From the IMG/VR virus record IMGVR_UViG_3300001335_000606: a stretch of 64,000 bases of DNA; one strand, written 5' to 3'. A program made the position numbers and the translations under genes. Numbering within the stretch: position 1 is the first letter of the stretch; every line of letters begins with the position of its first letter. The notes beneath the pieces are model-generated. The model worked only from the letters and a program-made list of their open reading frames with translations. It made no database searches and had not been told where the DNA came from. Shown in pieces: positions 926-63,080 of the stretch. The DNA is from an uncultured virus (IMG/VR IMGVR_UViG_3300001335_000606) (taxonomy: Duplodnaviria; Heunggongvirae; Uroviricota; Caudoviricetes).

Positions 926-2287
926 TTATCCACAAATATTTTTAGCCAAGCTTCTCCCCGTCCCATTGGCAACCACAATAGACCGAGACCTTCCTGAACA
1001 ATCCCCGATAAATTTTATTTTATCAGAATTGTTAATTTTGGAACCATAAAATTTTGTCTAAATACCATAAAGCAAATTGTCTTCAATGGAAACCTACGGG
1101 ACAACAATTGCTAATTTCGTAATGAACTCTTTTATCGCCTAATAAGTTTTAGCAGGGAGAACATAGGAAAGGTCTCCCAAAATATATTGTTCCTTTGGCA
1201 AGGTCGGTAATACTCTAAATAAATGTTTGGTTCTTTTCTGTTTGAGAAAGTCCCCTAGCGTTTGCAAAATTAATTTTTCTCTGGAACCTGCTAACAAGTT
1301 CGCTTGTTGTGCAATAGATTTGCCATATAATACTGGATTATTAAAGGGTTCAGTAAATTTTTGCGTAACAAGAATTGCAAAATTGGTATTCTTAGATTTA
1401 ACATTCGTTTTTGAATGTCCATTAACTATACAAACCTTCTCTCCCAAAACATCAACAAGCTATGTTACAACAAACCCTTTAGGATTATGACAAAATGTTC
1501 TTACTTCCAAATTATTGGAAGTTTTATATTTCACCTTCCATTCATGAAATTTCTAATCCAAGCTTTTAATGTTAGGCAAATTAGAAGGAATCTATATTCT
1601 TACTCCAATATCAACCTTAAAGCTTCCACCTAATAATTCTGGGTATTTCTTAGTAACATAGTCAACTAATGTCGTGCCATATCTGCCTACAGCTAGAATA
1701 ACCATATCATATTTCTCTTCAATTTCATCAAATTTTTCTGGAGTAATTTGAGTATCAAAACAAAACTAAACTAAATCACCTAATTCACTCTATATTCTTC
1801 GTAAAATCGCTTCATTTGTCATTTTTAATTGATCTGTTCCCAAATGGAAGGTTTTTCCACCTTCGGCACTAACTAAACACATTCCGTTATTATAAAATTT
1901 TTGGGCAAGCTCAGATAATATTTCCGTACTAAATTCTTCTGCTTCAATTTCTTTTGCATAATCCCGTCTTATCAAAGAATACGCTTTAGGATCAGGTTCA
2001 TCCATTTTATGTATTTTATACTCTTTATAAAAGACAGCCTTATCATGCTCAGTCAAAAAATAAGAAACAATTTTCTTTTGTTCCTAAAGTGATACTTGTT
2101 CCAAATCTTCGGGATTTTGTGATATAATTAACTTTCCATCATATGCTAAACCACCTAACCCTCCAGCTTTTTCTTCTGGATTTTGATCAAAAACCGTAAC
2201 TTCAACATCCTTTTTTCCAGTCTAAATTAATCCATTCAAAAATCCAATAGTGGAAGCTCCATAACCTATAATAGCAATTTTTTTCAT
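926..2287 (-). CDS. FAD-dependent oxidoreductase, 453 aa, 10 in-frame TAG read as sense
   Basis: Manual translation: MKKIAIIGYGAS (Rossmann), DGKL, HLGTD, VDIGVRI*IP, VRTFCHNPKGFVVT*, VNGHS, LLYGI*TKFY, IGDCSG. Joins ORF-track fragments 1790..2056 and 1139..1447 in one frame; ends TAA. Confidence 0.9.
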
Positions 2288-2493
2288 ATATGCATCCTCC
2301 AAACCATTAATGCCACAAATGCAATAGAAAAACCTAATCCGACCAGAATACACCCAGCAACTTTACTAGGCTTTGATTCATCCGAGTTGGGAAGCATAAT
2401 AGCAGCAATAGCTCCCATATATGATATTACAGACAAACTTAAACAAATAATACTATTAAACATCAATACCATTTTTAAAAAAATAACCATATA

Positions 2494-2916
2494 TTACTCC
2501 TTTATTTTTATAAATATATGTTTTTCAACTAATCCAAAAGATATATTCATAGTAATTGTCTTATTACCTTCATTAGGATTATTTAAAAACTCAATTCTAA
2601 TGTTGGGGTCTTTAAAATGAATTGTTTTAATTGTATGATCTTCCCGTAACAATAAAGAAACTAAGGAAGATGAATATTTTTTCGCATCAGCTTGTCGTAT
2701 ATCATACTTATCATTAACTAATAATAAAAAAACAACCCTTGGAGACTATATCTTTAAAATTTGCGACTATATATTATAAATAAATCTCAATAAAAATGGC
2801 TACCAAGGTTGGATTTCCGAGAAATTTATTTCTTTAGAAAATATCTTAAATATAAACTATTTTTTATTTTGTGTTATTTGAGTTAAGAAATTATCATTTT
2901 TAATCTAATATCTCAT
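2494..2916 (-). CDS. Hypothetical protein with 5 in-frame TAG
   Basis: ATG to TAA frame open except for TAG; fills a gap in the ORF track; end coordinate approximate. Confidence 0.6.
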
Positions 2917-60894: not shown

Positions 60895-61647
60895 TTAATT
60901 TATTAATTCTATCTATACAAAACCTAACTCATGTGATATTTTAATCACCTTATATTTTGAATTTCTAGGAAACAATAATTCGTTTTCCCCTCCTCCAATA
61001 AATATTGCATTGGATCCTTTTTTCGCATTTATTTTTACCATATATGCTTTTTCACCTCTTGCAAAATTAAAGGCATCATAAATATTGGGGCTTGTGCTAG
61101 TATAACCTTGCTATTGAAATATTTCACCCTATTTGGGTATAAACGAAGGATCGGATATTCCTCTATAAACAGAAACATCATGTTCTAATGTATTTTTCTA
61201 AAATACCTTATCAAGAGTTTGCACAATCTAATCAAAACCTTTCTTTTTTCCTTCGTTGGTTCTCAAATATTTATTAATATTCTTGTACTACTAACTGGTG
61301 TAAATATCAATAATATCGGACTATTTTTCAGTATAATTAGTATTAAATTTTTCCAGTTCTTTACGCTATATATACTACGAAGATTTTTTATTTAGTTTTT
61401 TAACATAATCCTATTGTTTTTTTCTATTAAATTTAGAAAACTTTCCACTTATTAAATCTTGAGTATATTTTGTATCATGATATAGCTATTTATCAAACAA
61501 TGCTTTAGCTTTTTTATAAACCTTGCTTGATGTATCATAGCTTAATGCTGTGGACACCTTTATCTAGTTCCCAGTTTCAGGGTTTACTATTGTACTATCT
61601 AGAACCTTTTGTTTTTTATCGCTCTAAATAAGTGATATTATTTTCAT
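60895..61647 (-). CDS. ADP-ribosyltransferase (VIP2/C3-like, R-S-E), TAG-recoded
   Basis: MKIISLI* leader; YTS**YKNINKYLR, VYRGI, GYTSTS, GENELLFPRN. Confidence 0.82.
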
Positions 61648-62057
61648 ATCTATTTTTTCAAAAGTTCCTTATTTCATATATGTTATTATGTCCTGAAACA
61701 ACATATGAGGGTTGTGTTTCGAAGAAGTCCGAACTGGCACAGATTTAATTCGTTTTACAATCCTTGACATTTCTTTCAGTTGTTCGGGATTTAACTTCAC
61801 ATCGTATTTCTCAGGCAAGGATTTCCCTGAAAATTCAAAATACGTGTCGGATAAAGAATTCCCTTTTTTCAAGTGGGCTAAAATTTCCGAACCTAGATTA
61901 AGCATGAATTTTTTTACATCAGTTTTAACCGCTTCGGAAACATCCACAGATCTGTAAACCTCTTTCAAGAAGGATAGTAGATAAGTTTTATCCATTTTTT
62001 TGTTCCTTTGTTTATATTCTACTTATATTATAACTTAAAATTTGAAAATAATTCTTT

Positions 62058-63080
62058 TTAATTTTGAAATCTCTAATTAATAATCTAATAATCAATGGCT
62101 TGAACTCCATATTTACGACGTACACCCATTTTCTTTATTCCATTTTTCTTTCTTAAAAAGATCTTTCTATATTTGCTAAACTAACAAAAACAATTCTGAA
62201 TATTCGACAATGAAAGATTTCTATAAGAAGCAGGTAAGTCGTACATTAACTATTCAAACCCTGTATGCTAATACTCACGCAACCATTTGTCTAAATTGTC
62301 TTTTACATAATAAACAAATTTGTATCTTTTCTTTCTTGGTATATTGGGGCAAAGATAATCTACACCTGCTAATGCTCCATTACCTAAATATACAAGTTCA
62401 TTCTAAGTTATTGCTGTCTAAGGACAATAAGTAATATCAACATAAATTTGATAGGCTAAAAAGTTTCCAATACCTTGCTGATTAGAAATTGCTTTAAACA
62501 CCTGTTCAGCATTATTGCTTTCTAATCCTTCCTTGAATGTCTAAAATTCTCTTGAATGATAAAATTTCCACATTCTGTAAAAGGGCATAAATACAATAGG
62601 GGTATCTTTATCATCACCTACATGCTTTCCCAAAACTCCACTATTCATATATGCCCCTCTATGCAATTTAGCATTCTACTAAATAAATGGAGAATAATAG
62701 TCCATTATTTCTTTAAAATCTTTCTTAAGAAGGGATTCTTTTATTGGAAATTTAAACCTTAAGAAGGTCGCAGGTTGATTAAATATTCTGAACCAAAAAC
62801 AATTACAAGCTTTTTCATATATGTTTAACTAGTCATTATAACAAATATGTTTCAATACAAATTTTGTGACCCTATCATGCAATCTTCTTACATTTGTAAA
62901 TGAATATGTTTGTAATATGGGATCATTCGTCCAAGGCGGGTCTAATTTTTTTATATCTTTCTTCAAATGTATTTTATATCGTTCGACAATCCAATATAAA
63001 AACATTTTCAATGCCTACTAATCGAGATTCTACTAAATTAAAGATAATATGTCTGCATATTTTTCCGTCACATTAATCAA
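62058..63080 (-). CDS. 5-hmdU DNA kinase / aGPT-Pplase1 family (DNA hypermodification), TAG-recoded
   Basis: WIVERYKIH, PPWTNDPIL..Y.FTNVRR..DR, FRIFN, GIGNFLAYQI.VD, NIQNCFC*FSKY; TTG start approximate. Confidence 0.85.

Follow-up and report, generated by a model that had tools for sequence, protein, structure and literature searches.

Until now, the only recodings of stop codons described in bacteriophages have been reassignments of TAG to glutamine and of TGA to tryptophan (or glycine). In the accessible part of one study, TAG read as glutamine and TGA read as tryptophan were the only changes observed in recoded phages, and the cause proposed was that host glutaminyl- and tryptophanyl-tRNA synthetases (GlnRS and TrpRS) happen to accept the suppressor tRNAs (10.1101/2021.08.26.457843); a 2026 survey of jumbo phages, in the portion of its text that is available, takes TAG as glutamine (PMC13037316). 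Here we analyse a stretch of 64,000 bases (hereafter the window; 33.4% G+C, no N) from the uncultured Caudoviricetes virus with the IMG/VR record IMGVR_UViG_3300001335_000606, nearly all genes of which are on the minus strand. In this phage and its relatives UAG is, judging from the sequences, very probably read as glutamate: TAG behaves as a sense codon, its positions fit glutamate, and a tRNA with the anticodon CUA and a glutamyl-tRNA synthetase (GluRS) are both present and conserved together. An earlier note on the same DNA had inferred UAG = Glu, and this is supported by alignment columns, composition, the tRNA and the GluRS, with glutamine as the plurality residue at none of the 48 sites scored. 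All coordinates are those of the window, and the features located by them are on the minus strand.

The open reading frames (ORFs) argue that TAG is a sense codon and no artefact. Many minus-strand frames of 140–504 codons contain 5–17 TAGs, are without TAA or TGA, and close in TAA or TGA. In the 103 non-overlapping minus-strand ORFs of at least 70 amino acids we counted 215 in-frame TAGs, with TAA as the stop in 73 and TGA in 30, which bears out the claim of the earlier note that long frames are broken only by TAG and end in the other two codons. In any frame of the minus strand TAA and TGA together account for approx. 5% of codons, and by our own arithmetic a frame of 465 codons without either is expected about once in 1e11, so that the open frames are not due to chance. 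In the genes with at least three TAGs these are evenly distributed along the gene (49, 31, 32, 39 and 37 in successive fifths). Coding density was calculated from greedily selected non-overlapping ORFs on both strands, which replaced a previous stop-to-stop coverage measure that gave no separation between TAG-sense and TGA-sense readings. The comparison that the earlier note had called for gave an increase from 57.2% under code 11 (5 ORFs of at least 300 amino acids) to 80.7% with TAG as sense (14 such ORFs; of 107 ORFs in total, 97 on the minus strand), while TGA as sense gave 66.2%. TAA as sense gave 80.3%, yet just 63 of its 112 ORFs lay on the minus strand, and this gain therefore reflects the opening of random frames.

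The use of TAG is very uneven among genes. The 91 non-overlapping minus-strand ORFs of at least 80 amino acids include 27 in which TAG accounts for at least 1.5% of codons, 21 with at least three TAGs and 51 without any; large genes are bimodal, nine having no TAG and eight having it as a share of 0.24–0.65 of their Glu-type codons. The region 55000–63500 was matched by independently assembled contigs from four public runs of two studies with zero letter differences, although these runs may include the source sample of the window; RNA data sets were absent from the listed holders of this region. The motifs searched for were recovered where the earlier note had reported them (X being the TAG-encoded residue): HXYIH at 49994–50008, ENXVLF at 51288–51305, LXIDG at 43258–43272 and CFCXFSKY at 62169–62192, together with KXSHC, HXIHAE, HGDFSLXNI, QSILXRYIQL, GVRIXIP and LLYGIXTKFY. 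The paralogous pair it described is likewise present, with IADEIDPP at 12179–12202 and IADXIDPP at 9498–9521; this shared eight-residue motif has its glutamate as GAA or GAG in one copy and TAG in the other.

To identify the amino acid, 48 TAG sites in five gene families were scored against standard-code homologues, using Codetta-like summed log2 odds. Outgroups were limited to distant homologues, since the large protein collection writes Gln at TAG in the phage's own proteins and evidently also in close relatives, and any recoded sequences left among them would bias the result towards glutamine. The plurality residue at the 48 sites was E in 21, K in 7, D in 5, A in 4, G in 3, N in 2 and Q in none, and the summed log2 odds were +55.8 for E, -33.9 for D, -43.1 for K and -76.8 for Q; taken singly, four of the five families ranked E at the top. 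In the DNA-methylase-like gene (22657..24054; 13 TAGs), aligned with 118 homologues of less than 40% identity, glutamate occupies site 318 in 118/118 and site 455 in 117/117 sequences, site 364 is E in 77 and D in 37, site 414 is E in 86/117, and sites 23 and 74 have an E plurality, while site 434 is basic or polar. The flavin adenine dinucleotide (FAD)-dependent protein (926..2353; 10 TAGs; 141 homologues below 45% identity) has E at sites 233 (130/132), 277 (136/140) and 411 (137/139). In the 5-hydroxymethyldeoxyuridine (5-hmdU) DNA kinase (HMUDK; 62058..63080; 15 TAGs; Pfam PF18723), compared with 55 standard-code viral loci, E was found at site 248 in 50/51 and at site 322 in 50/50 sequences. 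The glycosyltransferase-like gene (27184..28680; 13 TAGs), aligned with 14 far homologues, has E at site 29 in 10/13 and at site 255 in 10/14, with log2 odds for E in this family of +10.8.

The ordinary codons of the phage served as a yardstick in a set of 37 TAG sites, seven of which fall where Glu makes up at least 90% of the column. TAG sites resemble the phage's own GAA/GAG sites and differ from its CAA/CAG sites: an E plurality was observed at 17/37 TAG sites and 22/55 GAA/GAG sites (p 0.67) as against 5/31 CAA/CAG sites (p 0.010), and a Q plurality at 0/37 TAG sites as against 6/31 CAA/CAG sites (p 0.007). Mean outgroup frequencies of E and Q were 0.354 and 0.026 at TAG sites, 0.228 and 0.042 at GAA/GAG sites, and 0.161 and 0.210 at CAA/CAG sites. 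It should be noted that Glu also reaches at least 90% in the columns of two of the 31 ordinary Gln codons, and single motifs therefore prove little. We also considered whether TAG favours conserved glutamates, which was discarded as a trend only (mean outgroup E 0.332 at TAG and 0.220 at GAA/GAG, p 0.078).

The composition of the proteins points in the same direction. The 27 TAG-rich genes contain 4.82% E and 3.28% TAG, 8.10% altogether, compared with 7.70% E in the 51 TAG-free genes; TAG-rich genes are thus short of approx. 3% Glu and TAG fills the deficit, so that the composition agrees with glutamate. Glutamine is not depleted (3.00% in TAG-rich and 2.36% in TAG-free genes), and the fall in aspartate, from 5.95% in TAG-free to 5.20% in TAG-rich genes, is not proportional to TAG. 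Across genes the TAG fraction was correlated negatively with the E fraction (rho -0.35, p 6e-4) and positively with the Q fraction (rho +0.32). In-frame TAGs were also detected in the kinase gene of 17 metagenomic relatives, 13 of them with full-length copies (45–50% protein identity, 9–24 TAGs). Among 12 distinct HMUDK sequences of this recoded clade, the non-TAG residues in TAG columns (n = 439) were E 131, K 94, N 58, T 22, D 20 and Q 13, the codons in such columns included GAA 97, GAG 34 and CAA 11, and one column is TAG in all 12 sequences. Pfam scores prefer glutamate modestly: PF18723 scored HMUDK at 170.7 bits with TAG as E, 165.1 as Q and 152 as L, and PF03496 scored the ADP-ribosyltransferase-like protein (60895..61647; 14 TAGs) at 78.4 bits (E), 76.8 (D) and 76.4 (Q), which corresponds to +5.6 bits over Q for the kinase and +2.0 for the ADP-ribosyltransferase, with the deaminase flat.

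The tRNA that would read UAG is encoded at 56853..56927 (anticodon CUA; called by ARAGORN; Rfam tRNA 51.9 bits against a gathering score of 29). ARAGORN labels it ‘Pyl’, a label that rests on the anticodon alone; a pyrrolysine system was considered and set aside, with no PylS or PylBCD family in Pfam scans of 81 window ORFs and log2 odds for K of -43.1. Within the window its nearest tRNA is tRNA-Glu(CUC) (29549..29625; 70% identity), the anticodon of which is one base off CUA, while the tRNA-Gln(UUG) used for comparison (42396..42469; A1-U72) is 63% identical. Homologues of the suppressor were found in three metagenomic relatives (L058, L064 and L065), with the cloverleaf kept and compensatory changes at 6 of 19 stem pairs. 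When the four clade suppressors were each compared with 71 other tRNAs, of which only three are tRNA-Glu, the closest match of three of them was a tRNA-Glu (70–75% identity), tRNA-Glu(UUC) (31710..31786) being the nearest neighbour of those of L064 (75%) and L065 (73%); the best tRNA-Gln reaches 60–65%. A weak G:U forms the first base pair in 4/4 suppressor copies. A short variable loop was examined as a mark of Glu identity and rejected, as it is not kept among the four suppressors. By blastn against Escherichia coli genomes a suppressor tRNA gave no match.

At a distance of 1.1 kb from tRNA(CUA) lies a TAG-free gene for a bacterial-type GluRS of 455 amino acids (58080..59447; Pfam PF00749, 6e-72). 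It scored 324.2 bits with the NCBIfam model TIGR00464 gltX_bact (cut-off 289.95), residues 6–443 corresponding to positions 2–465 of the 470 in the profile, and 45.5 bits with the GlnRS model (cut-off 425.8). The possibility of GluQRS was also rejected, as the best such model gave 206.3 bits against a cut-off of 256 and the protein, at 455 amino acids, has a C-terminal domain. HIGN (residues 19–22) and KLSKR (228–232), which we take to be the HIGH-like and KMSKS-like signature motifs of class I synthetases, are invariant in an alignment of four clade sequences. Its best solved relatives are GluRS chains, to which the C-terminal part aligns poorly, and the alignment with the Thermus thermophilus chain ends at chain residue 321, short of the anticodon-binding domain. 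The gene has 0 TAG among 29 Glu-type codons (P 2.5e-4), while its neighbours use TAG for 24–65%, and its homologues in relatives have 0 TAG in 10/10 alignments.

The genes between and beside the two are equally free of TAG. ORF210 (57177..57809; 210 amino acids), between GluRS and tRNA(CUA), matches phrog_28876, ‘metal-dependent phosphohydrolase’ (1e-30), and its homologues adjoin GluRS in L058, L064 and L065. Beside tRNA(CUA) is a DUF2828/DUF7788 protein of 511 amino acids (55095..56630; Pfam; phrog_850, ‘RNA-binding protein’, 4e-103) with 0 TAG among 38 Glu-type codons and homologues in the same three relatives that also have 0 TAG. The order kinase, GluRS, ORF210 and DUF2828/tRNA(CUA) is kept in these relatives, the genes of which also contain in-frame TAGs.

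Several observations weigh against glutamate, or against so simple an account of it. At individual sites the outgroups disagree: sites 9 (N/K/R) and 203 (R/K) of the methylase-like protein are basic or polar, site 399 of the FAD-dependent protein is G in 133/137 sequences, and the four scored TAG sites of the deoxycytidine monophosphate (dCMP) deaminase (24057..24521; 5 TAGs) give no Glu signal. The earlier note had offered motif sites of this deaminase as evidence for Glu, a use that did not survive, as the sites are uninformative on the amino acid, the Pfam score is flat, and T4 has Y, E, D and E at the four aligned sites. The HMUDK of relatives, scored alone against an outgroup of approx. 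30% identity, did not separate Asp from Glu (n = 15: D first in 11, E in 3 and H in 1; Q negative in 15/15), and taken by itself it reads as ‘acidic’ rather than as Glu. The similarity of the suppressors to other tRNAs is just 66–75%, that of L058 is nearest to a tRNA-Arg, and G1:U72, tried as a Glu identity mark, is common to 10 of the 36 window tRNAs and is uninformative. Among solved structures the closest GluRS is the Thermotoga maritima enzyme of entry 3al0, which includes a Glu-tRNA(Gln) amidotransferase subunit; this GluRS is presumably non-discriminating, and a route from Glu-tRNA to Gln is thus conceivable. No release factor gene, such as the release factor 2 gene that some code 15 phages carry, was found among the 81 window ORFs in Pfam scans. 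Finally, three ORFs (41298–41636, 15051–15401 and 12778–13230) have a single TAG within their last ~10 codons, where it may be a true stop, perhaps in early genes.

How far do these points favour another decoding? If TAG meant glutamine here, as it does under genetic code 15 in recoded phages such as the crAss-like and Lak groups and as public pipelines take for granted, the phage would conform to the sole TAG reassignment reported for phages in the available parts of the two surveys (10.1101/2021.08.26.457843; PMC13037316), to the protein collections, which write Gln at TAG in this phage's proteins (P0001, P0019), and to experiments in E. coli extract in which, according to the accessible text, 28 of 29 tested phage tRNA(CUA) inserted Gln (10.1101/2025.10.30.685624). 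Yet Q is the plurality residue at none of the 48 TAG sites and has log2 odds of -76.8, the reading would raise Q, with TAG counted in, to 6.28% in TAG-rich genes when TAG-free ones contain 2.36%, seven TAG sites stand on columns of at least 90% Glu, the suppressors are closer to tRNA-Glu than to tRNA-Gln, and the linked synthetase is a GluRS for which the GlnRS model fails; we consider this most unlikely. Highly unlikely, too, is a mixed or indirect decoding, in which Glu-tRNA(CUA) would be amidated partly or wholly to Gln by a host amidotransferase, or in which competing tRNAs would give a mixture of Glu and Gln. The transamidosome entry 3al0 as the closest solved GluRS and the weak G:U pair in all four suppressor copies are consistent with it, but in three families TAG falls on invariant Glu columns of catalytic type, where Gln would usually be harmful, and the composition balances with Glu alone. 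Bacterial GatCAB requires U1-A72, which the suppressor does not have.

Two alternatives remain. That TAG stands for Asp, Lys, pyrrolysine or some such other residue, or for glutamate in a modified form, appears very remote. D ranks first in 11 of the 15 relatives when HMUDK is scored alone against the distant outgroup, K is the second most common partner of TAG within the clade (94/439), and ARAGORN prints ‘Pyl’; against this, the log2 odds in the window are -33.9 for D and -43.1 for K as compared with +55.8 for E, TAG alternates within the clade 131 times with GAA/GAG as against 20 times with Asp, E content falls in proportion to TAG while D content does not, and no PylS-like protein was found in Pfam scans of the 81 window ORFs. 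The idea that TAG is still a stop, in broken genes or pseudogenes or with a hypermodified genome giving rise to artefacts of assembly or sequencing, deserves next to no credence: the frames are interrupted under code 11 and the phage encodes enzymes of thymidine hypermodification, but frames with 13–17 TAGs run for as many as 504 codons without a TAA or TGA, TAG columns are common to relatives from other metagenomes (one in 12/12), the contigs of four runs and two studies are identical letter for letter, and a conserved tRNA(CUA) is present.

With UAG read as glutamate, the phage would possess two classes of genes, one spelling 24–65% of its glutamates as TAG and the other TAG-free. The latter includes the GluRS and the genes around tRNA(CUA) and would be translatable by a standard-code host as it stands. 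UAG would be decoded by the phage tRNA(CUA), which appears to have descended from a tRNA-Glu and would be charged with Glu by the phage GluRS. Ordinary GluRS enzymes rely on three anticodon bases; the anticodon CUA keeps only one of these, which makes the phage enzyme the likely charger, and, considering this dependence together with the linkage, TAG-freedom and conservation of the gene, we hold that it probably plays this role. Once the tRNA and the enzyme accumulate, the TAG-bearing genes would become translatable, host release factor 1 presumably being outcompeted at UAG; the timing of such a switch is inferred. Products made in this way would comprise the DNA hypermodification enzymes, ADP-ribosyltransferase-like proteins and endonucleases. 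The fuller proposal, for which we see about even chances, is that of a phage clade with a self-contained natural pair, consisting of a GluRS whose anticodon-binding domain has diverged and a tRNA(CUA) derived from tRNA-Glu, that installs UAG = Glu in a standard-code host and would represent the first reassignment of a stop codon to Glu outside eukaryotes; proteins with TAG at glutamates, including catalytic ones, would then remain unmade or nonworking until the pair is expressed.

The TAG-bearing genes are found in several parts of the window. A set for hypermodification of thymidine or cytidine occupies 22657–28680 and 62058–63080 and consists of the 5-hmdU DNA kinase, the dCMP deaminase, the methylase-like gene, a cytidylyltransferase-like gene (25708..26157; 4 TAGs; family match), a kinase-like gene (26126..27196; 9 TAGs; family match) and the glycosyltransferase-like gene, with in-frame TAGs in every one. 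Two endonuclease-like genes identified by Pfam, one of DUF559 type (43084..43989; 17 TAGs, 65% of its Glu-type codons) and one NUMOD3/DUF559 (44914..45654; 9 TAGs), are situated inside the tRNA array and are among the most TAG-recoded genes. Some functional assignments of the earlier note fared less well. Its zincin reading of the 504-amino-acid ORF with the HXYIH motif (49169..50683; 13 TAGs) found no family match with TAG as either E or Q. For the second ADP-ribosyltransferase-like gene (51168..52076; 16 TAGs, one of them in the ENX motif) and the HEMGH protein, a 143-amino-acid ORF with the motif FHXMGH (41960..42391; 7 TAGs), the motifs are indeed present and the family matches remained below cut-off: the former scored 20.1 bits (E) and 16.3 (Q) with PF03496 and 21.1 with PF01129 under either reading, and the latter 16.3 (E) and 12.6 (Q) as SprT-like.

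By Pfam the window also encodes an RNA ligase, a peptide deformylase, two ADP-ribosyltransferase-like genes and endonuclease-like genes, and a phage repertoire is borne out by PHROGs matches of its proteins. Megablast against cultured phages revealed no close cultured phage, and queries with the GluRS and the DUF2828 protein found no close relative in a viral contig collection and none in genome contigs. ARAGORN and Rfam detected 36 tRNA genes and one transfer-messenger RNA (tmRNA). The tRNAs form an array at 29549–56927 in which all 20 amino acids are represented, with tRNA-Ile(UAU) among them and tRNA-Lys only as CUU. A further Rfam tRNA hit (41890–42000; 45.5 bits; 111 nt), absent from the ARAGORN calls, overlaps the 3' end of ORF 41960–42391 and may carry an intron. 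The tmRNA (52293–52638; Rfam RF00023, 64.2 bits against a gathering score of 47) has the tag peptide GETQLKAA* according to ARAGORN.

Should the glutamate reading hold, public databases mistranslate a whole clade with Gln. Four close homologues in public collections (P0289–P0292) are rich in Q and poor in E, consistent with the same Gln-at-TAG mistranslation; P0291 and P0292, with 6.7–7.4% Q and 2.6–3.6% E, evidently come from recoded relatives to which code 15 was applied, and the conserved CFCEFSKY stands as CFCQFSKY in public protein collections. Gene calling under code 15 would then put Gln at catalytic glutamates of the clade and distort annotation, structure prediction and proteomic searches. 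It would also follow that phages can install reassignments which host enzymes do not supply for free, that the prokaryotic world has a new natural code, and that the GluRS/tRNA(CUA) pair is a candidate orthogonal pair for code engineering. TAG to Glu would be a genetic code undescribed for any virus of bacteria; no report of it in a phage or bacterium was found in the full-text literature, a search with subscription journals and supplements outside its range.

In the peritrich ciliate and Blastocrithidia nuclear codes (NCBI tables 30 and 31) UAG is glutamate and so is UAA, and to our knowledge UAG = Glu occurs only in such eukaryotic nuclear codes with UAA also reassigned. The phage differs from them in that TAA is its main stop (73/103 ORFs) and the reassignment is virus-borne, in a host that presumably uses the standard code. 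Among phages, tRNA(CUA) with a co-localised GlnRS or TyrRS provides a precedent for natural suppressor tRNA–synthetase pairs in code-change loci, although in the accessible part of that study the cell-free assays gave insertion of Gln, Tyr and, once, Ala, with no GluRS pair reported (10.1101/2025.10.30.685624). The TGA-recoded Jade phages, as far as the available text describes them, have a suppressor tRNA, TrpRS and RF1 in standard code (10.1101/2021.08.26.457843); the present locus resembles these in having a suppressor tRNA with the matching synthetase nearby, free of the recoded codon and beside recoded genes, and differs in that the pair is UAG/Glu instead of UGA/Trp and that no release-factor gene is among the window ORFs scanned. 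The likeness to the TAG-recoded code 15 phages (crAss-like, Lak and Agate), in the accessible accounts of these, extends to TAG in only a part of the genes, a phage tRNA(CUA), code-change genes written in standard code and low G+C (10.1101/2021.08.26.457843; Peters et al., PMC9523058); here the subset compatible with the standard code comprises 51 of 91 ORFs, including GluRS, DUF2828 and ORF210. What sets the phage apart from them is the amino acid: in code 15 phages TAG is Gln, with proteomic support in two crAss-like phages, whereas here, on the strength of the sequence, it would be Glu.

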